From Promethearchaeati archaeon SRVP18_Atabeyarchaeia-1 (lineage in GTDB: Archaea; Asgardarchaeota; Atabeyarchaeia; Atabeyarchaeales; Atabeyarchaeaceae): 64,000 bases of DNA. Location of the stretch: assembly GCA_037308085.1 (NCBI GenBank), contig CP147779.1, positions 224,001-288,000 of the forward strand. Direction: 5' to 3'. A program made the translations under genes and the position numbers. Positions 11,741 to 46,309 of the stretch are shown here, piece after piece (position 1 is the first letter of the stretch; each line of letters opens with the position of its first letter). The notes under the pieces are model-generated. The model was not told the origin of the DNA and searched no databases. It saw only the letters and a list, made by a program, of their open reading frames with translations.

Positions 11741-11921
11741 ACGAGTCTGCGCAATTACGGTTTGTAATACCCTTTGGGGAATTGATTACTGGGCGTCATT
11801 GCGTTGACGTTCTCGAGATTCCTCCTGAAGAAGAATTAAATATGAGGAGGAGTAATCGGTCAAGTGGGGAATCGAAGTTTGTCGTCTCTCTTTTTGGTTT
11901 TGCCAGGGAGGTATTCTTCTA

Positions 11922-13139
11922 ATGCCTAAGATGTCAAAGCTACTTGCAAACATCAAGACATCAGCAATCCGCAGAACTGCTGCTTGGCTTGCACTAGCAA
12001 AAGACAAGAAGGAAATCATAAGTTTCGGCGGAGGAGCACCTAGCCTTCCACCGCCGTCTGAGCTTGTGCAGAAACTCAGAGAAGCCTTGAATGATCAATG
12101 GAAGCCTTTTGCCTATGGTGGGACTCGTGGCACACCTGAGTTGCGCGAGGCAATAGTCAGGGACCTGTACAAGTATGGGAAGGTCCGGCTTGATGGACCT
12201 GACAATATCATAGTAACCCATGGTGGAACAGAAGGCATCTTCGCCGGACTGGGGGCGATTCTTGATCCAGGTGATGAGGTAATACTTGCTGATCCAACTT
12301 ACCTGGGGTATCCCGAGGTTCTTAAGATAATGAATGCAAGGGCAGTCACCTTGCCAGTAAGTGTTGATGAAGGCTTCCAGCCAAAGGTTGAGACCTTGAA
12401 GAAGAAGATCACTAAACGAACCAAGGCCTTTGTGCTGCTCTCACCGGACAATCCGACGGGTCGTGTAATAAGACCTGAAATAGCAAAAGCGATAGTCGAC
12501 CTTGCATGCGATCATGACTTCTGGATCGTTTGCGATGACGCTTACAAGCACACGATCTTCGAGGGTAGTCATACTTGGGCTAGCACACTCCCAGGCGCCG
12601 AGGATCGCACGCTCACAATCTGTAGCTTCTCCAAGGAGGCCTCTATACCGGGACTTAGACTTGGATACTCCTATGGCAGTACGGAAATAATAGATGCGAT
12701 GGAGAAGTACGCGCAGTACCTGTCCCTTTGCCCCGAGAGCCTTGCCCAAATTGCGGTTACGGGTTACTTGGCGGATCCGAAGGCCAAAGATAGATACCTC
12801 ACCGAGGAGGTGATTCCGACCTACAAACAAAGATGTGACGCTATGGGCATGTTCATCGAGAAGTACCTCCCAGAAGCCCGAACATCAAAGCCTCAAGGAG
12901 CCTTCTACTACTTCGTGGACTTCGGAAGTTACTTGAGTGAAGCAGGGTTGAATGAAGAGGAGTTTGTTGACGAACTTAGGTTGAAGAAGAGCGTCATAGT
13001 AATACCGGGAAGAGTCTTCGGAGAGAATGGAAAGAACCATGTTCGGATGACCTTCGTATCTGAGACAGATAAAAGAATTGAAGAGGGAATAAAAAGAATA
13101 AGTAGCTTCCTAAAAGAGAAGTCCGATCAAAAGAGCTAG
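11922..13139 (+). CDS. Class I/II PLP aminotransferase
   Basis: SPDNPTG, DDAY, SFSK..PGLRLG, C-terminal RMTF. Confidence 0.92.
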   Translation: MPKMSKLLANIKTSAIRRTAAWLALAKDKKEIISFGGGAPSLPPPSELVQKLREALNDQWKPFAYGGTRGTPELREAIVRDLYKYGKVRLDGPDNIIVTHGGTEGIFAGLGAILDPGDEVILADPTYLGYPEVLKIMNARAVTLPVSVDEGFQPKVETLKKKITKRTKAFVLLSPDNPTGRVIRPEIAKAIVDLACDHDFWIVCDDAYKHTIFEGSHTWASTLPGAEDRTLTICSFSKEASIPGLRLGYSYGSTEIIDAMEKYAQYLSLCPESLAQIAVTGYLADPKAKDRYLTEEVIPTYKQRCDAMGMFIEKYLPEARTSKPQGAFYYFVDFGSYLSEAGLNEEEFVDELRLKKSVIVIPGRVFGENGKNHVRMTFVSETDKRIEEGIKRISSFLKEKSDQKS

Positions 13140-18794: not shown

Positions 18795-18999
18795 ATGGCG
18801 CGGAACAAACCGCTTGGAAAGAAATTGAGGTTGGGTCGTGCATTGAAGGAGAACAGGTCTGTCCCAACGTGGATTTCCCCTTGAACTCAGGTCGATGAGT
18901 GACTCAGTTTCAGAGGACCATTGAGTTGTGAAGACCAACAGGAAAGTCAGAACGCATCCTGGAAGGAGAAACTGGCGCAGTTCCAGTGTGAAACCTTAG
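18795..18999 (+). CDS. rpl39e: Ribosomal protein L39e, split by a BHB intron (exons 18795-18874 and 18924-18999)
   Basis: Spliced product [51 protein letters not shown] (51 aa); AGGTGA RBS; canonical position between PDCD5 and rpl31e. Confidence 0.95.
18875..18923 (+). other. 49-nt archaeal-type (BHB) mRNA intron
   Basis: CAAC/GTTG outer stem, GTGG/CCAT 4-bp helix, 3-nt bulges ATT and TGA, TCC/GGA inner stem; contains in-frame TGA at 18882. Confidence 0.88.
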
Positions 19000-29958: not shown

Positions 29959-30618
29959 ATGATCTTGGGTGACAACTTGGTTGAGGCTGCTAGGGATCTT
30001 CGCTACCTCTTATCGCGCGGTTACAGCAGAGAAGCGTCAGTAAGGTTTGTTGCAACGGGGCACGGAGTCACTCTGGGAGAAAGATACATTCTGATGAGGG
30101 CCGTGTACGACGACGCGGAAGCGGAGAAGAGACGAAGAAAACTCGTCAGCCTCGACGAAATAAGGGGGGAGACGGTCTCAATCGACGGCTACAACCTCCT
30201 AATTACCGTTGAAAGCATGCTTGCCAAGAAGCTACTTGTTCAGTGCGACGACAATATTACTAGGGATGTCTCGGGGGTCTTCGGAAAACACAAGATAACG
30301 ACAGTGACGACGCAGGCACTTAGCCTGATCCTAAGGAAACTAAAGGACCATGCTCCAAAGGAAGTGCGCTTCACATACGATAAGCAGGTGAGTAAGAGCG
30401 GAGAGCTCGCCTCTCAGACGCGGATGATGATGGCAGAATTCGAACTGAAAGGAACAGCTACGACAGCCCTGAAGACAGACATTGCCACACTTGAGTCAGG
30501 AGGAGTAACTGTAAGTAGCGACAGCGTCGTGGTTGACAGAGCAAAGAGAATACTCGATCTCGCCGGAGAACTCGCTCGCCAGGAATCTTACAGCAACATC
30601 CTACGCCTCCCGCATTGA
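29959..30618 (+). CDS. DUF434 family PIN-like protein
   Basis: DLRYLLSRGY, IDGYN, DDNITRD, SKSGEL, SSD. Confidence 0.85.
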   Translation: MILGDNLVEAARDLRYLLSRGYSREASVRFVATGHGVTLGERYILMRAVYDDAEAEKRRRKLVSLDEIRGETVSIDGYNLLITVESMLAKKLLVQCDDNITRDVSGVFGKHKITTVTTQALSLILRKLKDHAPKEVRFTYDKQVSKSGELASQTRMMMAEFELKGTATTALKTDIATLESGGVTVSSDSVVVDRAKRILDLAGELARQESYSNILRLPH

Positions 30619-30688
30619 GGCATTTGAGAAAAAACATTTTAATAGCATCAAGTAAGTAATAACTAGCCTAAATACTGGGTCAATAATA

Positions 30689-30786
30689 GGGCCCGTGGCC
30701 TAGTCAGGATAGGGCGTCAGCCCTCTATGCAGCGGACAGGCAAGGAAAGCTGATGGTCGTGGGTTCAAATCCCACCGGGCCCGCCA
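30689..30786 (+). tRNA. tRNA-Arg(TCT) with 20-nt intron at 37/38 (30728-30747), atypical C33
   Basis: Same body as the other tRNA-Arg genes; stem TCAGC/GCTGA; relaxed BHB CCTC/AAGG, bulges TAT and AAA. Confidence 0.85.
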
Positions 30787-30979
30787 GTCTGTTCTGAGGC
30801 TAAAGGTTGCAGGACAGCTATTTATGCAGAGGATCATCCATATCATCATATGTTTTGAAGAAATCGGAGTCACCTTCCTTCAAGTATGCCAGAGCTGTGT
30901 CAATAGCTGAAGAGTCTAACCTTATTTCTTGTCTATTGTGTAGAGTGACCGTCGCGCGCTTCGCCCCCGTCACAATCGA

Positions 30980-32698
30980 TCAGGTTCTGACCATGCTCCT
31001 GACCTGGGTGAATATCTCTTCCCGAATTAGCTTCTGCAGTTCGTCGAGGCTATTTAGTGGACGTTTCCTCATTATGTTGGAAACTTCTCTCTGGGAGACT
31101 CTCGGCAATGCCTGGAGCAACCTCGGTGTAGCCGTATTTATGTTGAGGGGAAAAGGTACGCCTGTCACTGAACGGTATCCGTGGCTTACGACTGTTGCGT
31201 CAAGCCACTCGTTAAGCTGGACCTTTTCAGGTATCGTCACGAGTAACGGGTATGTTCCGACCTGCCTGGCATGGGTCATTCTACCTTCATGGGTCTCCGT
31301 TCTGACGCGCCGAAGGACCGTTCCAGTTGGAACTAGCCTCCGAAGCATCGGAAGATCCACTTCGGTTCTCATCTTGTCCTTATAGGCAGCGAAAATACTC
31401 TTGTTTCTTCGAACTATCCTATTCCCGATCTCATTCATCCTCGTGCCTGGGAATGGTATTACCTGCCTTATGTTTATCCGTCTTACAAGCAGACCGAGTC
31501 TAAGAATATCCTTCATGAACTCCAAGTTGAGTCTGTAGCTTTCTCTGGTCTCACCCATCAGACCATAGAGGAAGTTAATTCCAGGAAGTAGCTCGGGCAG
31601 CCCGTTGGATCCTCTCACGGCTCCAACCTTGTTGATTAGCTGAATAGCTGACAACACCTGCTCAGGGCTTGCCTTCAGATTGTTCATCTTTATTACGGAA
31701 GGATCGACACTCTCAACCCCGAATGCTGCAACATCACCTGGCGTGTGGTACTTCACTATTGTTTTAGCTATCTCTTCGCATTCCTTGGGATACCTTGCTA
31801 TTACTCCTGGATTTGCATTGTCGATGTGCAGTGTCTCTATATCGGGGCATTCAGATCTAATGCCTCCGAACAACTTCTTCAATGCGTCTGGATTCGGTTT
31901 GGGAAACTCTTCTTCACCAACACCTATGGCCATATAGCTGAATATGTCTGGCTGCCGACCTAGGCGGAAGTGCCTGACCCCTGCTTTGTGAAGAGCCTTA
32001 ACTTCGTCGACGATGTCGATTATTGGTCTGAAGTCTGGCAATCCATAGAGAGGCTCTATGCAGAAGGAGCAGCCTCCTGATATACATCTCGGGCATCCTC
32101 GATAGGTCTCCACTTCACAAATCAGTGTTTCAGGGTAGTTTGGATGCTGCTTGACGATCTCTGCACCCTTCACAGCATATTGCGCTATTTCGTGGGCACT
32201 GCTTCTCTTCACTTCTCTGTCAATCCTGTCTTCATGCAATTTCTCTCTCACTAATTGTGAGACAACGACCTCGACATCGCCATGAGCCACAACATCGAAT
32301 AATGAGGAGATCATCTTGTCAGGTCTTTCAGCAATCTTTCCTCCTTCGACACCGCAACCGAATGTCGCTGCTGGACCTCCTAACACTTTGACGGGTTTAC
32401 TGACCATCTTCATGTAATGAGTGATTTCCTTCAAGTCCCCAGGTGTACCTCCTAAGTACTTCCCTGGCACAGCGACTCCAGCTATGACAACAAGAAGATC
32501 CAAGCGGTTCAATTGGGAGAGTATATCCGATGCGAATCGTCGTGTTTGATCCACAGTGAAGTAGCGTGTTGTACTCTCCGGATTTGAATGGGAAATTGCG
32601 CCTGCCACGTAGCGTGGGTAGGGGGAAAGGTACGGCGGCACCCCCAGACATGCCGGCTCATCAACATAGCAATCAAGTATACCAGCTTTCACTCTCAT
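30980..32698 (-). CDS. Archaeal radical SAM protein with TRAM-like and C-terminal HhH domains
   Basis: DCYVDEPACLGVPPY, RGCPRCISGGCSFC, NINTA HhH. Confidence 0.88.
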   Translation of the reverse strand: MRVKAGILDCYVDEPACLGVPPYLSPYPRYVAGAISHSNPESTTRYFTVDQTRRFASDILSQLNRLDLLVVIAGVAVPGKYLGGTPGDLKEITHYMKMVSKPVKVLGGPAATFGCGVEGGKIAERPDKMISSLFDVVAHGDVEVVVSQLVREKLHEDRIDREVKRSSAHEIAQYAVKGAEIVKQHPNYPETLICEVETYRGCPRCISGGCSFCIEPLYGLPDFRPIIDIVDEVKALHKAGVRHFRLGRQPDIFSYMAIGVGEEEFPKPNPDALKKLFGGIRSECPDIETLHIDNANPGVIARYPKECEEIAKTIVKYHTPGDVAAFGVESVDPSVIKMNNLKASPEQVLSAIQLINKVGAVRGSNGLPELLPGINFLYGLMGETRESYRLNLEFMKDILRLGLLVRRINIRQVIPFPGTRMNEIGNRIVRRNKSIFAAYKDKMRTEVDLPMLRRLVPTGTVLRRVRTETHEGRMTHARQVGTYPLLVTIPEKVQLNEWLDATVVSHGYRSVTGVPFPLNINTATPRLLQALPRVSQREVSNIMRKRPLNSLDELQKLIREEIFTQVRSMVRT

Positions 32699-32868
32699 CT
32701 TCTCCGAATCAGAAAGAACCAGCGGCCACTTACTGATTTACCATTCCTACATCAATCTACTTGCTGCAGTCTTAAATAATCGCGAGGTAACGGTTTCCCT
32801 CGGGCATTTCGTGGATTGCGTTAAGATTCTTTAGCTTGCACAGTCTCCACGACCGAGAGAGCTGACAA

Positions 32869-33777
32869 TCACTTGTGCCTAAGCGACTCTGCGATCGCGT
32901 GCATTTCCGCAATGTCAGGTGCGCTCGAAGAACTGAGGAAGATATGGAGCATTCTGCCACCGGCAGAAGGATATGGAACAACTACTTCGTGGTGCATGGT
33001 CTTCTTTGCCGACCATACGTGCCACTCGACATCGGCGCCCAGCAATTGTTCTTTTGGTTTTGTGAACCTCACTTTTTCACGCTCGTGGTGGTAGCTGGGG
33101 TGGTCGCCGATATACACCCCGAGCTGGGAACTCGGCGCTCCCAAAGGGACCACCTTCTGCAGCCGATAGACTGTAAAATCTAGTCCAGGCTGCGCCGTGA
33201 GCGCATATCCATCGGGGACTAGGGCGGTAAATGCTCCAATCTCGCGCGGGCCGCCTTTGAGGTTGAGCACCTTGTCGCCGGGTGCAATGGTCGCGGCGAT
33301 TGAGCGAGCCAACTTTACGCAACCTGCCGCGTCCGCGCCTGCCTTGCGGTTGACGAAGAACCCGAGCAATTGGACCAAGCCGTCTTCATGGTTCATGACC
33401 ACGGATAGGACAGGGACGGCGGTCTTGTGAAGATCCAGCTTTGCCGGTGAAATGAGGAATCCGCGACTCTCGCGCGCTTCTATCCTAGCGCCACCCATCT
33501 CCCACGTGTCGACCATCTTCTTGACCTGCCTCTCAAAGTCTTTGCTGGCCGTTCTAAGAAGCTCGTATGCCATGACGATTAGGCGCTCGTCGCCCGCATC
33601 CAGCACGACGCGTGACTCTTCCTCCGCTGATTCTGCGGCGGACATAATGTTCTCGTGTCGCGCTTCGAGCTTAGCGCCCGCGGGCATCCGGATCGTGAGA
33701 CGCCCATTCAAGAGCTTCAGCGGCCGATCCACAAGTTCCAGTTGCCTCAACTTGCCTTGAGCCATTTTACACCACAT
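32869..33777 (-). CDS. Hypothetical protein, GC-richer than its neighbours
   Basis: 302-aa ORF filling the gap; no recognised motif. Confidence 0.65.
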   Translation of the reverse strand: MWCKMAQGKLRQLELVDRPLKLLNGRLTIRMPAGAKLEARHENIMSAAESAEEESRVVLDAGDERLIVMAYELLRTASKDFERQVKKMVDTWEMGGARIEARESRGFLISPAKLDLHKTAVPVLSVVMNHEDGLVQLLGFFVNRKAGADAAGCVKLARSIAATIAPGDKVLNLKGGPREIGAFTALVPDGYALTAQPGLDFTVYRLQKVVPLGAPSSQLGVYIGDHPSYHHEREKVRFTKPKEQLLGADVEWHVWSAKKTMHHEVVVPYPSAGGRMLHIFLSSSSAPDIAEMHAIAESLRHK

Positions 33778-33933
33778 TTCATTTTGGATTGGTGATGTTC
33801 GGTATACGTTATTGCTTACTTAAACGTGCCGAGAGTCCTCCTCGCGGAAAAGCTATTCCGAGCCAAGAAAATGCTGCGCCTAGCCTCTCAGACGCTTCGG
33901 TTTCTTCAGCCACTAACCGGAAACCAAGATGTT

Positions 33934-34263
33934 CTACTTCTCCATCGTTCTGAACCGCGGGGGGGCGACTCGCTCCTCCTTGCACTTCGGGCATTTCTTC
34001 GGGCGCCGAGGTTTCTTCAGACTTTTGAATACGAAGCCACATGCCCTACACGTGGGGGGAAACATAATTACGCATTCCCGCCCTCTCGACTCCGCGTAGA
34101 CGCTTTTAGCAATGTGGTCTAGGTCCTCATAGATTGTCTCCACATCAATGCGTTCGCCGAGCAATGCTACTATGTCTTCAACGGAGAGCGGGTTCTTGGA
34201 GTCTTTCAGCATCCGCTGTATCCGTTCGCGCCTGCTTAGCATCAACATAGTGATGAGAACCAT
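33934..34263 (-). CDS. HTH + Zn-ribbon transcriptional regulator
   Basis: RRERI..L, YEDLDHIAKS, CRACGF..CPKC. Confidence 0.88.
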   Translation of the reverse strand: MVLITMLMLSRRERIQRMLKDSKNPLSVEDIVALLGERIDVETIYEDLDHIAKSVYAESRGRECVIMFPPTCRACGFVFKSLKKPRRPKKCPKCKEERVAPPRFRTMEK

Positions 34264-34292
34264 CTCTGCCAGTTTGTGAATGGATCCGTAGT

Positions 34293-35315
34293 CTACTTGA
34301 AGTGCTCATAGCCCTTGGGCTCTATCTTCCTGACTCTGCCCCCTTCGGTCTTCAGGGTGACATGGCGTTCCCTCGTTGCTTCCCCTATCTTGTACAGAAT
34401 CCCTCCAGCTTGCTTTATGGCCTTCTGAGCCGCGTCCCACAATCCATGCTTGACCGTAACTACCAACTCATACTCTTCCCCCCCATAAAGCGCCAAGTCC
34501 AGCGGGTCAAGCCTGTTTTCATCAGCAAACCTGAGTACTTCCCGCGGTATGGGAATATCCTCGACACGGAACCCCACCTTGCTTGATCTTGCGAGCTCGT
34601 GCATAGCCCAAGCTAACCCATCAGAGCTATCTATCGACGAAGAAAGACACTTAGACTTGCCCAGGGCCACTCCCTCAAAGACCCGCGCCCTCGGCTCACA
34701 GACCGCCGCAACCAACCGCCGCCTAATTTTAGCATCAGCACGTTCTCTCCCGAGCAGGAGCTTCAACCCAGCCCCAGTCAAACCAAACTGACCAGTTACA
34801 GCCAACGCGTCCCCCACTGAAGCTCCGCTTCTCCTTACCAAGTTCGACTCCTCCGCGAAGCCAAAGGCCATCCCAGAAACTATTAGATCACCTGATTCAC
34901 CTGTGTCTCCTCCAACGACACATGCTCCAAACCTCTCAGCTTCAACCGAAACCCCGCGCATCAAGCTTAACGCATCCCCGACAAGGTAGCTGCGCGGCAG
35001 CCCCAGCGATATCATTATGCCCGTCGGCTGAACTCCCTTCGCGCCAAGATCACTGAAATTCATGGTTACAGCCTTCCTTCCAACCTGCCGCGGAGTCATC
35101 CCAGGCGGCACGTCCGTGGCGCCAACAAGCATGTCTGCCTTAACAACAACAACTCTGCCGCCCCCCAGTTGCACCGCCGCCGCATCGTCGCCAGTGGGGA
35201 GAGCTTGCCCTGGACAGGGCTTCAATAATCCCAAAATCTTCTTAACCACCGCGCGCTCCCCAGCATCACCCATTGACAATCCCGACAGATTTCTTGGCAA
35301 AACAATCTCCACCAC
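34293..35315 (-). CDS. thiL: Thiamine-monophosphate kinase
   Basis: GDDAA, NFSDLGAKG, GGDT, DSSDGL, GGEEYEL, GYEHF. Confidence 0.95.
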   Translation of the reverse strand: MVEIVLPRNLSGLSMGDAGERAVVKKILGLLKPCPGQALPTGDDAAAVQLGGGRVVVVKADMLVGATDVPPGMTPRQVGRKAVTMNFSDLGAKGVQPTGIMISLGLPRSYLVGDALSLMRGVSVEAERFGACVVGGDTGESGDLIVSGMAFGFAEESNLVRRSGASVGDALAVTGQFGLTGAGLKLLLGRERADAKIRRRLVAAVCEPRARVFEGVALGKSKCLSSSIDSSDGLAWAMHELARSSKVGFRVEDIPIPREVLRFADENRLDPLDLALYGGEEYELVVTVKHGLWDAAQKAIKQAGGILYKIGEATRERHVTLKTEGGRVRKIEPKGYEHFK

Positions 35316-35534
35316 ACGAGGACACTGCTCCCTTCATATTACTTTGGAGGATAAAAGAATTGACCCGTCAGAGATGCTTCGCCGTCAACTAATGTAACAA
35401 TGGTCGGGGTGGAACCATAGGCTCCGTCTTTGCGCAAGTGAATTCGACGCGACGGCAAATTGGAAAAACTTAAAAAGGAAGAAGCCGAGAATCCACTTAC
35501 AAGGACGATAGAAGGTCCCCGAGTCAGAACACGT

Positions 35535-35744
35535 GCGGAGGTAGCCAATCAAAGCCTTTCACGAAAAGGCTGGGCAAGGCCTGGTCAAAGGCGCAGGAAT
35601 GAGGATCGCCATTTATGGCGAGCATATGTCCTGTTCCGTAGGGATTATGATCCGCCGCAGGGTTGGTGGTGGCGGTTAGTCCCGTATCGTGGGTTCAAAT
35701 GCCGGGTTGGAGCCGCAACTCGGCTGAGACTCCCTCCCTCCGCA
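35535..35744 (+). tRNA. tRNA-Leu(GAG) with four introns (35549-35578, 35605-35627, 35646-35686, 35700-35730)
   Basis: Removing four BHB-like hairpins gives an 85-nt class II cloverleaf; acceptor GCGGAGG/CCTCCGC, A73. Confidence 0.9.
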
Positions 35745-36095
35745 TCAGCTCTTCCGAATTCCTGCCTCTGAAGGACTACTGGCGTCCCTGCTGTGTGGCT
35801 GCTGGGCTGGTTGGTCGCCCGCTATTCTCCTTAACGAGGTTTCTCTCTCCTTTCCCTTCTTTGTGAGTCCTCTGTAGATATTGATTCTTCTGTGCCGACA
35901 TCTTCGTGGTAAGGGGTTGCGTGCCTGGAGCTTCGAAATACTGATAGGGGTTGGGCGTATGGAGCACCGTTGGGTAACTGTTATTTACTACACGCGTTTA
36001 TTCTTGAGGTGTCTCAGTCTTCGTGTTTGTTCTGACTACTGCAAGGGTATGACTGGTGGAGAACTGCTTCTGAGCTCGAGGTGCGGAGAGGAACG

Positions 36096-37742
36096 ATGGA
36101 TTTCGAGATAAGGGATAAGGATGTTTGTGGGCGTATTGGCGCGATCAGGACGAAGACTGGGTGCTTCGAGACGCCTGTTCTCTTGCCGGTTGTCAATCCT
36201 TTTGCGCTTAGGGGTCTCTCCCCGTCTGATCTTGAGAAGGAGTTCGGGTGCGAGGCAATAATAACAAATGCGTATCTTCTCTGGAAGCACTCTGCGAAGG
36301 AGTCTTTTGAGCGTGGCGTCCACAAACTGCTTGACTTCTCTAAAAGCATTATGACTGACTCGGGCGCATATCAACTATTAACCTATGGTGACGTGGGAGT
36401 GGAACCGAGGGAAATTGTAGCTTTCCAGGAGAATATAGGGAGCGATATTGCGGTCATCCTAGATGTTCCCACAGGAGGGTATGAGAAACGGGATCGTGCG
36501 GTTTTCACGGTCGACGAAACCATAAGGCGTGCCAAGGAACTGGGAAGCATAAAGAGAAGAGATGATATTCTGTGGGTCGGTCCAGTGCAGGGTGGAACAT
36601 ACCTAGATCTCGTGGAGCACTCCGCTAGGGAGATGGGGAAACTTGGTTTCGATATCTACGCCATAGGTAGCCCTACTCAGATCATGGAATCGTATAGGTT
36701 CGACAAGCTTGTTGACTTGGTGGCTACGGCCAAGTTCAATCTGCCGATAGAGAAACCAGTGCATCTTTTTGGGGCCGGGCATCCTTCGATCTTCTCCCTT
36801 GCTGTGGCACTTGGATGCGACATGTTTGACTCGGCGTCGTATGTTCTCTACGCTAAGGACGATAGGTATATGACTGGCTCTGGAACTCGAAGGCTAGGTG
36901 ATTTGAGGGAGAAGGTCTGCACCTGTCCCGCTTGCCAGAGGTTCGAGTTGAAGGAGATGTTGGCTCTCCCTGCGGATGAACGCTTCACCGTTGTCGCTCG
37001 GCATAACCTCTACCTGTGCTTGAATGAGATTCGGGTGATCAAGCAGGCAATACATGAGGGAAGGCTCTGGGAGCTTGTCGAAGTCAGAGCTAGAACGCAC
37101 CCACGGCTATTGGAGGGGCTGAAGAGGCTGCGGAAATATCGCAGACAACTTGAGAAATATAGCCCTATGGTTAAGCCCCATGCAATCTTCTACGCTGGTC
37201 CTGAATCATTGCTGAGACCAGAAGTAACTAGGCACCTAATGAAAATGAATAGGATATCGGCTCCATTGGGAACCGAGATTCTCGTAATACTCCCTGAGCC
37301 AGACAAGAAACCGTTCAGTAAGTCGAAGCAACAGAGAAAGTACAGAAGAATAATTAGGGAAGCTCTTGGTAGGGGACAGCTGGAGAAGATTCATATTTGC
37401 ACCGTATCGAAGTTTTTCGGTCTGATACCGATGGAGCTTGATGAAACCTATCCACTTGCTCAGCATGAGGCACCAAGAACACCTGATCTGGAATCAAGGA
37501 AAATGATATCACACTCAATCAAATCTTACGTAAGAAAACACAAGTATCGTGCTGTGCTGCTTCACGCTGATCACAAGGTTCTTGGCAAATGTGCGACTGA
37601 TAGTATCCTCAAATTGTGCGTGCAGCTTGGAATATTCGCCCTTCTAACTCCAAGAGAAGCGATTCACCCCAGAAGCAAGCAAGCCCTGGATGAGTTTAGA
37701 CACGCAATTATCGAGGCACAGAGTCACCTAGACGGAGAGTAA
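36096..37742 (+). CDS. tgtA: Archaeosine tRNA-guanine(15) transglycosylase
   Basis: ETPVLLPV, MTDSGAYQ, LDVPTG, VQGG, HLFGAGHP, DMFDSA, CTCPAC..HNL. Confidence 0.95.
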   Translation: MDFEIRDKDVCGRIGAIRTKTGCFETPVLLPVVNPFALRGLSPSDLEKEFGCEAIITNAYLLWKHSAKESFERGVHKLLDFSKSIMTDSGAYQLLTYGDVGVEPREIVAFQENIGSDIAVILDVPTGGYEKRDRAVFTVDETIRRAKELGSIKRRDDILWVGPVQGGTYLDLVEHSAREMGKLGFDIYAIGSPTQIMESYRFDKLVDLVATAKFNLPIEKPVHLFGAGHPSIFSLAVALGCDMFDSASYVLYAKDDRYMTGSGTRRLGDLREKVCTCPACQRFELKEMLALPADERFTVVARHNLYLCLNEIRVIKQAIHEGRLWELVEVRARTHPRLLEGLKRLRKYRRQLEKYSPMVKPHAIFYAGPESLLRPEVTRHLMKMNRISAPLGTEILVILPEPDKKPFSKSKQQRKYRRIIREALGRGQLEKIHICTVSKFFGLIPMELDETYPLAQHEAPRTPDLESRKMISHSIKSYVRKHKYRAVLLHADHKVLGKCATDSILKLCVQLGIFALLTPREAIHPRSKQALDEFRHAIIEAQSHLDGE

Positions 37743-37770
37743 GCGTCAAGAAGCTACCGGGGAATGTTGA

Positions 37771-38442
37771 GTGAAAGAACTAAGGCTAGACCTGCATATT
37801 CATACATGGTACTCAAAGGACGGAATACATCCTCCGAGCCTCATATTGAAAACCGCATTCTCCAAGGGGTTGGATGTCATCGCATTGACGGACCACAATT
37901 CTGTTCGAGGATTAAAGGGGATAAGAGGTGGAGTTCACGGCATCACAATTGTGCCCGGCATTGAAGTGGACACAATCGAAGGGCATGTGATAGGGCTCGG
38001 AATCGAAACCGAGATAAAGCCTTGGCTGACTGCAGCCGAAACGATTGAGCGGATCAGAGACGAAGGAGGAATTTCGGTGATTCCACATCCGTTCGACTAC
38101 CTCCGGCGTGGTATCGGATCAAGAGCCAAGACGATCGGGGCTGATTTAATCGAGGTAATGAATTCCAGATCCAATACGCCTCTTGCTAACTATTGGGCTA
38201 GAAGAACCGCCGACAAAATACACAGCCCGATTACGGCTGGCAGTGACGCACACTTGGCCGAGGATGTTGGAAATGTATTCTTAGCGTTCGACAACGAGGA
38301 AAGTGAACAAAGTGTCGACTCGATTCTTAGGTTGCTGACTTCGCGACGGGGAGCTAAGCCCAGAGTTGTAGGCGGTCTGACGCCCCTGAGTAGCAGAGTA
38401 AGGAAAATAGCTTTGGTGAGACTAAAAAGAACAAGCGGATAG
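37771..38442 (+). CDS. PHP-domain metal-dependent phosphoesterase
   Basis: DLHIHT, TDHN, GIE, PHPF, GSDAH. Confidence 0.92.
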   Translation: MKELRLDLHIHTWYSKDGIHPPSLILKTAFSKGLDVIALTDHNSVRGLKGIRGGVHGITIVPGIEVDTIEGHVIGLGIETEIKPWLTAAETIERIRDEGGISVIPHPFDYLRRGIGSRAKTIGADLIEVMNSRSNTPLANYWARRTADKIHSPITAGSDAHLAEDVGNVFLAFDNEESEQSVDSILRLLTSRRGAKPRVVGGLTPLSSRVRKIALVRLKRTSG

Positions 38443-38460
38443 ACACAGGTTAGAAGAGCA

Positions 38461-39687
38461 TTAGAGCTTTTGAAGCCCCAAATCGATTTCCAGAGTTCTC
38501 CTCTTCTGCTGCGCCAAAGCACTTCTTGCGATCCCGAATTCACTTGCTTTCGCGTCTTGCCTCTTTAGGGCTTCTATTTTGGCCGTGGATTCTATGACGT
38601 TGCTCTCAACATAAACTCCGAGCTCTTTCATTTCAGCAAGCTCATGGAAACCTGCCTCGAACCCCATGGTATCGGCGTCAGGACCCAGAACAGACTCACC
38701 TTTTATCCCTGTGAGGAGAAGTATCGTCCTTATGATTCCATTGAGGTTAGGAGAGACCCGTGCTCCCCAGATTACCTTTGAGCTCGGCGCCATCCTTCTC
38801 GTTACGAGTTCGGCGACCCGGGTAGCTTCTGAGAGAGTCATATCCGCCCCACCTGAGACGTGAACTAGCGCACCGGTCGCCCCTGTGACGACAAGAGAAA
38901 GCAGAGGATTGTTTAGCGCTTCTTCAACTGATTTCTCGGCCCTGTTCTCCCCCTCAGCCTCCCCGATACCTATTATGGCTACACCGCCGACACCCATGAT
39001 TGATCTGATATCAGCAAAATCGAGGTTAATGAGAGACGGCAGCTTGATCGTTTCAGTGATTCCCTTAACCATGGTTGCAAGAACCTCATCGGCGACCGCA
39101 AAGGCCTCTTCAATCGGGTAGTCTGGCGCAACCTCCAGTAGCTTGTTATTATCCACCACTACAACCGTATCCACATGTTCCCTTAGTCTGCTGAGACCTT
39201 CACGCGCCCTTTGGTTCCTAAGTTCCCCTTCGACCTTGAAAGGTAGAGTCACAACCCCTATCACTATGGCCCCGACCTGCTTAGCTATCTCGGCCATAAT
39301 AGGAGCTCCGCCGGTTCCTGTTCCTCCCCCCAAACCGCATGTTACGAAAACCATGTCGGCGCCCTCTAACGCCTGCGAGAGAATCAGGCGACTCTCCTCG
39401 GCGGCAGCAGCGCCTAGCTCTGGATCTCCTCCAGCACCAAGACCACGGGTAGTTTTCTCCCCTATCAATATCTTCCTGTGAGCAGGAACCGAGTCTAGGT
39501 GCTGTTTGTCGGTATTTATCGCAATACACTCCGCGCCTTGAATCCCGAGATGCATCATTCGTTTAACAGTATTGTTGCCGCCTCCGCCAACGCCACAAAT
39601 AATAATCACTGCCTTGCCTGGCTCACGAACACTTGACGCTCTCTCTTCCTTCGCGTGTTTGATGGCATTCTGGATTATCGATTTCAT
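38461..39687 (-). CDS. ftsZ: Cell division GTPase FtsZ
   Basis: GVGGGGNN, GLGAGG, GGGTGTG, INLDFAD. Confidence 0.97.
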   Translation of the reverse strand: MKSIIQNAIKHAKEERASSVREPGKAVIIICGVGGGGNNTVKRMMHLGIQGAECIAINTDKQHLDSVPAHRKILIGEKTTRGLGAGGDPELGAAAAEESRLILSQALEGADMVFVTCGLGGGTGTGGAPIMAEIAKQVGAIVIGVVTLPFKVEGELRNQRAREGLSRLREHVDTVVVVDNNKLLEVAPDYPIEEAFAVADEVLATMVKGITETIKLPSLINLDFADIRSIMGVGGVAIIGIGEAEGENRAEKSVEEALNNPLLSLVVTGATGALVHVSGGADMTLSEATRVAELVTRRMAPSSKVIWGARVSPNLNGIIRTILLLTGIKGESVLGPDADTMGFEAGFHELAEMKELGVYVESNVIESTAKIEALKRQDAKASEFGIARSALAQQKRRTLEIDLGLQKL

Positions 39688-39743
39688 CGACTACCCTCCA
39701 AAGCCGATAATCTCCCCTATTTCCTTGGGCTTTCTGCCTAGGC

Positions 39744-39935
39744 CTACCTTGCAAGGACAGATGCGGTGGCACTTGAGGGGCGTTCCCATAACTCGTTCTT
39801 CAACAGATCCCTTACAGCAATCCGAATTGCCTCTGACCTGTTGGGATAAATTCTCGACCTGACGAGTTCCTCTATGCCCTCGAGGAAAGCTTCTGGTAGA
39901 TGTATTGTTACAAGTCTTAGACCTCGATGTTCCAT
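39744..39935 (-). CDS. cdrS: CdrS-like ribbon-helix-helix regulator upstream of ftsZ
   Basis: LVTIHLP..IEELV...YPNRSEAIRIAVRDLL; conserved RHH-ftsZ pairing. Confidence 0.8.
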   Translation of the reverse strand: MEHRGLRLVTIHLPEAFLEGIEELVRSRIYPNRSEAIRIAVRDLLKNELWERPSSATASVLAR

Positions 39936-40252
39936 AATATATTCTCACCAGAATACTACTTCGTAATACGGGCATATAAGCCTAAGTAATGCGTGTGACA
40001 TCTGCTCGGATTACATCATGACCATCTCCTTATAAACCTATCTTGGATGCTTCATCATGTTCGCGGCATCAAAGATGTCCTGGAGCTTAGACTCGAGAAA
40101 TCGATTTACATTCTGTATAATACCGCACTTTTGAGCCAATTGACTCCTTTTTGGGCAAATTTGAGCCTGAATCGCACGATAATTGTCATCTGGCTCCAGG
40201 TCTGAGCATTGTATTAGTCCTGCGGTTGCGGGCGTATCACCGACGTAATACT

Positions 40253-46171: not shown

Positions 46172-46309
46172 AGCCCCGTGGTCTAGCGACCCCGAGCCAA
46201 CGGTCGTCGGCTCGGGCTAGAAGCCAATGATGGCGGGCTTTGGACCCGTTGACGGGAGTTCGAATCACTCAGATGATTTTTGAGGGCGAGAGTCTCCCCG
46301 GGGCTACCA
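46172..46309 (+). tRNA. tRNA-Gln(TTG) with two non-canonical introns (46189-46222 D-loop; 46265-46292 T-loop), CCA encoded
   Basis: Acceptor AGCCCCG/CGGGGCT; anticodon arm GCGGG-CTTTGGA-CCCGT; BHB helices CTAG/CTAG and TTCG/CGAG. Confidence 0.93.

Follow-up and report, generated by a model that had tools for sequence, protein, structure and literature searches.

The DNA analysed here, called the window, is a stretch of 64,000 nucleotides (positions 224,001 to 288,000 of contig CP147779.1) from the genome of Atabeyarchaeia-1, an Asgard archaeon of wetland soil. Between thiL (34293-35315, minus strand) and tgtA, the gene of the tRNA G15 transglycosylase (36081-37742, plus strand), lies a tRNA-Leu(GAG) gene of 210 nt on the plus strand, at 35535-35744 of the window and 259535-259744 of the genome. 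Both neighbours keep the same position in the relatives examined. The gene consists of five exons and four introns, all read on the plus strand. Exon 1 (35535-35548) holds tRNA positions 1-14, with the 5' strands of the acceptor stem and D-stem, and is followed by intron 1 (35549-35578, 30 nt) at site 14/15. Exon 2 (35579-35604) holds positions 15-37 with the anticodon GAG at 35601-35603, and intron 2 (35605-35627, 23 nt) lies at the canonical site 37/38. Position 38, the 3' strand of the anticodon stem and most of the variable arm make up exon 3 (35628-35645); intron 3 (35646-35686, 41 nt) sits at the 3' foot of that arm. The end of the variable region, the 5' strand of the T-stem and the T-loop up to position 59 form exon 4 (35687-35699), and behind intron 4 (35700-35730, 31 nt, site 59/60) exon 5 (35731-35744) supplies positions 60-73 with the discriminator A73, CCA not being encoded.

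The introns account for 125 of the 210 nt (59.5%) and the spliced product is 85 nt long. ARAGORN reads the spliced form as tRNA-Leu(gag). Its fold is a complete cloverleaf of class II that has the anticodon GAG, A73 as discriminator and a U50-U64 mismatch. The preliminary description of this DNA had given four introns, an 85-nt product and an intron share of about 60%, and all of this, including every coordinate, agrees to the base with a re-reading of the sequence and with ARAGORN on the spliced form. The codons CUU and CUC make up about 43% of the Leu codons in a rough count over long ORFs.

About 60 nt upstream of the gene an A-rich box resembling BRE/TATA (35462-35476, plus strand) is seen in the sequence and is a possible promoter. 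A sigma-70 promoter and terminator scan found nothing, such models not being applicable to archaea, and four sequencing runs inspected over window positions 30000-40000 had zero coverage at the gene, which has no bearing on its expression. Intron 1 directly precedes G15, the target of the adjoining TgtA, and the modification of G15 would be expected to follow splicing. In the same neighbourhood, amid core archaeal genes, a 302-aa ORF without NCBIfam match (32869-33777, minus strand) was possibly acquired horizontally.

Junctions, motifs and the precursor

We wrote a spliced aligner without any knowledge of the BHB motif, which avoids circular boundary calls. Aligned to the intron-free tRNA-Leu(GAG) of Geocrenenecus (78/85 identical), the gene gives exactly the same four introns, and the same boundaries came back repeatedly when Leu tRNAs without introns from other Asgard genomes served as references. 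The limits of introns 1 and 3, which had at first been drawn partly from the tRNA consensus, are recovered here independently of the motif. The unspliced gene is detected by neither ARAGORN nor Rfam, and ARAGORN with relaxed score and long introns allowed returned 657 calls that were mostly spurious. In a spliced-alignment scan of the whole genome two references gave the locus scores of 75 and 100, against 30-55 for the remaining Leu and Ser tRNAs and a maximum of 21-23 in the reversed genome. The scan covered both strands and found no further Leu(GAG) gene in the genome, so that the proposal of another gene supplying the function, raised beforehand as a possible refutation, finds no candidate.

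Only intron 4 has a canonical hBHBh' motif (a 4-bp central helix, two 3-nt bulges plus one outer helix or more), with 4/4 central pairs and a 9-bp intron helix. The three others have 3/4 central pairs each and belong to the relaxed class, and the claim that three of the four motifs carry a mismatch in the central helix therefore stands. In intron 1 the mismatch is A-A, the exon helix is lacking, and a 7-bp stem comes after an intron helix of 2 bp; in intron 2 the mismatch is A-G and both outer helices are present; intron 3 has an A-G mismatch and no exon helix. In introns 1 and 3 the mismatch is purine-purine and lies at the end beside the 3' bulge in all three Atabeyarchaeia genomes, which also agree in lacking the exon helix at both introns. 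At boundaries set independently of the motif every intron has at least 3/4 central pairs, and the register of introns 1 and 3 is kept in the orthologues. The intron hairpins have z values of -1.8, -3.5, -0.6 and -2.9 in order; introns 2 and 4 exceed shuffled sequences in hairpin stability, which introns 1 and 3 do not clearly do.

For each intron the register defined by homology was the best or equal-best among the seven tested. In introns 3 and 4 the register can also be moved rightward by one base; the mature RNA stays the same, but the central pairs drop to 2/4. A shift of intron 2 by +1, which gives A38, was rejected, as the exon helix is lost and G38 of both orthologues contradicted. Relaxed BHB motifs are frequent by chance. 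Of random genome placements, 2.1% have at least 3 central pairs and at least 2 intron-helix pairs, as all four introns do, a criterion chosen after the data had been inspected.

In the computed fold of the precursor the acceptor stem is closed. Intron 1 is the partner of the D-stem 5' strand there (about 0.55), and intron 3 that of the variable-arm 3' strand (about 1.0); in the computed ensemble the central helix of intron 2 is unformed and that of intron 4 is present at only about 0.25. As introns 1 and 3 occupy strands of the D-stem and the variable arm, these arms could presumably form only after splicing. An alternative 7-bp helix without bulge is energetically preferred in intron 3, but the cut that it implies yields no tRNA and it was discarded.

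Orthologues, intron history and the rpl39e insert

Atabeyarchaeia-1 (G000) was compared with G001, which has the same genus label, and with G002, Atabeyarchaeia-2; these two are the only other genomes of the class, and the comparison covers the three clean orthologues. Both relatives carry the gene next to thiL and tgtA; it is conserved, single-copy and syntenic. In the G001 orthologue only site 14/15 and the variable arm are interrupted, and splicing gives an 85-mer identical to that of G000. The G002 orthologue has introns at 14/15, in the variable arm and at 59/60. Exons 1 and 3 are the same in all three genomes, and the G002 mature tRNA differs at 2 of 85 positions, a compensating change in the T-stem, while the flanking proteins are only about 67-78% identical. 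The exons are near-invariant and the intron hairpins change, yet the BHB register is kept.

Intron 1 has a counterpart of 22 nt in each relative, at the same site and with the same 3' helix strand, and intron 3 one of 32 nt, at the same site and with a conserved basal stem and a variable apical hairpin. Judged by these features, introns 1 and 3 are homologous in the three genomes, which they have in common from before their split; in both introns the motif-building ends are conserved and the apical hairpin is variable. Intron 2 is found only in G000, the junction being joined in the DNA of G001 and G002. Intron 4 is absent from G001, and the 34-nt intron at 59/60 in G002 differs from it in sequence except for the end constrained by the motif. 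Junctions 2 and 4 consequently exist ready-joined in the DNA of relatives, and junctions 1 and 3 are uninterrupted in many intron-free Leu tRNAs of other archaea, so every intron is precisely absent from some relative.

Intron 2 is most simply explained as a recent gain, and intron 4 as either one loss or two gains. A TgtA tree left its four Atabeyarchaeia rows unresolved, and the polarity of gain and loss is for that reason taken from the GTDB genus labels only. The identities of the flanking genes and introns 1 and 3 partly favour a grouping of G001 with G002, under which the distribution of intron 2 could be one loss. The earlier suggestion of highly active intron gain fits introns 2 and 4, which vary between the relatives; it does not fit introns 1 and 3, shared by all three genomes.

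A metagenome scan brought up a fourth syntenic copy on Ga0315309_1000091 (L091, about 11760-11940, minus strand), in the order thiL-tRNA-tgtA-PHP-ftsZ. Exon 1, a 33-nt intron at 14/15 and exon 2 are preserved in it; the 3' half, with mismatches and additional bases, is not cleanly spliceable. It could be a decaying copy, a misassembly or another arrangement of introns.

The window holds one more insert of this kind. The gene rpl39e (18795-18999, plus strand) carries 49 nt at 18875-18923 with a canonical BHB motif (4/4 central pairs), and removal gives a frame of 51 aa. It had been thought plausible that intron gain of the kind seen in tRNA-Leu(GAG) was the source of this intron, and in its strongest form the idea is that of mobile copies spreading among tRNAs and mRNAs, as in Thermoproteales transposition, one of which seeded rpl39e. 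About 90 tRNA introns in the genome, a canonical motif in an mRNA and the presence of introns 2 and 4 in some relatives but not in others would suit it. The sequences themselves do not. Local-alignment scores of the four introns against the rpl39e intron are at the level of shuffles (P 0.47-1.0), as they are against the 88 predicted tRNA introns of the genome (P 0.23-0.88), these statistics being approximate and based on doublet shuffles. Against the whole genome there is no match beyond 13 nt exact, the rpl39e insert is also unlike any tRNA intron of the genome, and the mark of the Thermoproteales type, related introns in different host genes of one genome, was not found. In the preprint of Goswami et al. 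[quoted passage not shown] We find such transposition highly unlikely: recent copying is largely refuted, old copying followed by decay is possible, and a tRNA intron as donor of the rpl39e intron is not supported by the alignments. A shared enzyme for the rpl39e and tRNA introns is likely.

Splicing enzymes and the status of the gene

Atabeyarchaeia-1 encodes RtcB and two EndA paralogues. The alpha paralogue (209 aa, genome 202592-203221, minus strand) has EndA alpha of Aeropyrum pernix as its best solved match (PDB 3P1Z, E 5e-46), and its Y147, H155, K186, R179, W206 and K64 align to Y125, H133, K164, R157, W183 and K44 of that enzyme. The catalytic triad, R157, W183 and the loop lysine K44 consequently all have equivalents in the Asgard subunit. 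In A. pernix K44 lies in a Crenarchaea-specific loop that confers broad specificity for relaxed motifs (PMC3241643). In the second paralogue (241 aa, genome 623841-624566) the catalytic His is missing, and it is apparently a structural (beta) subunit; it is longer than its A. pernix counterpart and divergent. A further difference from the A. pernix enzyme is Lys as the equivalent of R46. A catalytic paralogue with triad and loop Lys beside a non-catalytic one is the make-up of an (alpha-beta)2 EndA, and the enzyme is likely of this type and of broad specificity. The expectation that relaxed motifs would go together with a heteromeric EndA is in this way borne out, with an enzyme known, and an architecture read, from sequence.

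For transcription, cleavage, order of removal and enzyme architecture we infer the following pathway. The 210-nt precursor would be transcribed and, with its acceptor stem closed, would present four non-overlapping BHB or relaxed-BHB junctions. EndA would cut twice at each of the four introns, the crenarchaeal-type loop lysine serving the relaxed motifs. RtcB would then ligate the exons, and end trimming and the addition of CCA would come afterwards.

Two other readings of the gene have to be weighed against this. It could be a pseudogene disabled by its insertions, with CUU and CUC read by extended wobble, for instance of tRNA-Leu(UAG). This would go well with three imperfect central helices, the U50-U64 mismatch, the degenerate look of the L091 copy and the failure of tRNAscan-SE (in the published table), ARAGORN and Rfam to find the gene. 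We give it next to no credence, as the exons equal those of G001 and differ from those of G002 only by the compensating pair in a neighbourhood where proteins have diverged far more, every insert lies in BHB register, and the genome has no other Leu(GAG) gene. It is very improbable, too, that splicing is confined to introns 2 and 4, with insert 1, insert 3 or both either staying in the RNA as enlarged arms or being taken out by some pathway that does not involve EndA. Introns 1 and 3 invite this thought by their 3/4 helices, their lack of an exon helix and hairpins near shuffle stability; their 3' ends, however, are paired with strands of the D-stem and variable arm in a register common to all three genomes, their retention would destroy the D-arm and the variable arm, and exact removal restores the 85-nt length common to intron-free relatives. 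The loop lysine of the EndA is, moreover, one shown to permit cleavage of relaxed motifs (PMC3241643).

We are confident that the gene is the real, functional and single-copy tRNA-Leu(GAG) of Atabeyarchaeia-1, with four cis-spliced BHB introns. Its anatomy, junctions and uniqueness are shown, as are the presence and key residues of the enzymes; that it is transcribed and spliced is likely.

Multi-intron tRNA genes missed by annotation

Valentin-Alvarado et al. (2024, PMC11291895) found 92-95% of the tRNA genes in these genomes to carry introns. Four introns are tabulated there for Leu(GAG), Arg(TCT) and Ile2(CAT) of Freyarchaeia and for Trp(CCA) of Atabeyarchaeia-2, and four tRNAscan calls for Lys(TTT) of Atabeyarchaeia-1 itself (PMC11291895 Supp. 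Data 4). These multi-intron genes come from the same genome and lineage as the four-intron Leu(GAG), which the table omits: the Atabeyarchaeia-1 list skips from 254689 to 270172 and has no Leu(GAG) row, so the gene is unannotated there. Its entries at 231487, 235646 and 254689 agree with tRNA coordinates in the genome analysed here. The Atabeyarchaeia-2 orthologue is tabulated with three introns, two of them at 14/15 and 59/60 (PMC11291895); the middle one is published as 271279-271320 (37/38), and our alignment puts it at 271297-271328 in the variable arm. Asgard tRNA genes have been found to contain an average of 2.2 intervening sequences and as many as five, in a census limited by its own statement to genes detected by tRNAscan-SE (bioRxiv 10.64898/2026.10.13.758758), and the Leu(GAG) gene is because of this limit probably outside it. 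BHB association, repeated gains, the lack of copying between tRNAs and an EndA of two paralogues are common to that census and our gene.

The tRNAs of Thermoproteales and of Cyanidioschyzon merolae have up to three introns (PMC3728597, PMC4090602), likewise at non-canonical positions, with relaxed BHB motifs and splicing of EndA type, and ordered removal has been shown in C. merolae. Compared with these the Leu(GAG) gene has one intron more and no sign of copying of the Thermoproteales type. When first described, its four introns were measured against the three of Thermoproteales; the Asgard benchmark already stands at four (PMC11291895) and up to five (bioRxiv 10.64898/2026.10.13.758758). The gene is therefore no record and leaves the known upper range of tRNA fragmentation unchanged. 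By every testable feature it belongs, as an unannotated case, with the Asgard tRNA genes that carry several BHB introns, and it closes a gap in the tRNA set published for a reference Asgard genome.

Whole genes, and not just single introns, escape the standard annotator. Six more tRNA genes of Atabeyarchaeia-1 that are absent from the published table were predicted with a BHB bonus in the aligner, some of their boundaries being uncertain: Ile(TAT) (36840-37086, plus strand) and initiator Met (463981-463772, minus) with five predicted introns each, Ile(GAT) (447828-448040, plus) with four, and Ser(CGA) (637349-637150, minus), His (464422-464248, minus) and Asp (about 508574-508402, minus) with three each. 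All six spliced forms pass ARAGORN, that of Asp at relaxed score. With these six and Leu(GAG) the genome has 46 tRNAs plus Sec, a complete set without redundancy in which each anticodon class is represented once.

One predicted relaxed form, in which the first central pair is mismatched and the exon helix is missing, recurs in three D-arm introns that directly follow position 14 or 15: those of Ile(GAT) (447843-447877), initiator Met (463966-463926) and Leu(GAG) (intron 1). The final two introns predicted for initiator tRNA-Met (463841-463782, minus) are parted by an exon of 4 nt, and their removal is on that account probably ordered.

It is not far-fetched, though we would put it at somewhat less than even chances, that a whole tier of Asgard tRNA genes is missed entirely by standard software (7 of 47 here, predicted to have 3-5 introns each), in which case the published intron burdens for the lineage are too low. 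The same idea takes in the form of introns 1 and 3 (a conserved 3-bp helix with a purine-purine mismatch and without exon helix), which is predicted for the D-arms of Ile(GAT) and initiator tRNA-Met as well: it may be a recurrent substrate of Asgard EndA and may dictate in which order splicing and modification take place. How the introns arrive is a question named as open by the preprint (bioRxiv 10.64898/2026.10.13.758758), and the orthologue series with two, three and four introns around a near-identical mature tRNA is a natural test set for it, as well as for the specificity of Asgard EndA and the order of splicing.

The tRNA set also bears on the decoding of AUA. We found no tRNA-Ile2(CAT) in Atabeyarchaeia-1 and no TiaS (PF08489) in the three Atabeyarchaeia genomes, two of which are single-contig, while TiaS is present in three other Asgard genomes; the Freyarchaeia TiaS as query gave no tblastn match in Atabeyarchaeia-1. 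G000 and G002 do have tRNA-Ile(UAU), which is probably the reader of AUA, as described for ARMAN archaea (PMC3239211). Going by gene content, this is probably a eukaryote-like switch, and we found no paper noting it in the Atabeyarchaeia lineage.

Some published tRNA identities look mistaken when all introns are removed. In Atabeyarchaeia-1 the 'His GTG' at 366350-366156 looks like Val(GAC), the 'Pro TGG' at 808245-808089 like Thr(GGT) and the 'Gly ACC' at 2474261-2474399 like Thr(CGT), and the second 'Leu CAG' of Atabeyarchaeia-2 (C1, 2410455-2410592) also looks like Thr(CGT). Within the window a tRNA-Gln(TTG) gene (46172-46309, plus strand), with introns in the D-loop and at 59/60, is missed by ARAGORN and Rfam and is present in the published table.
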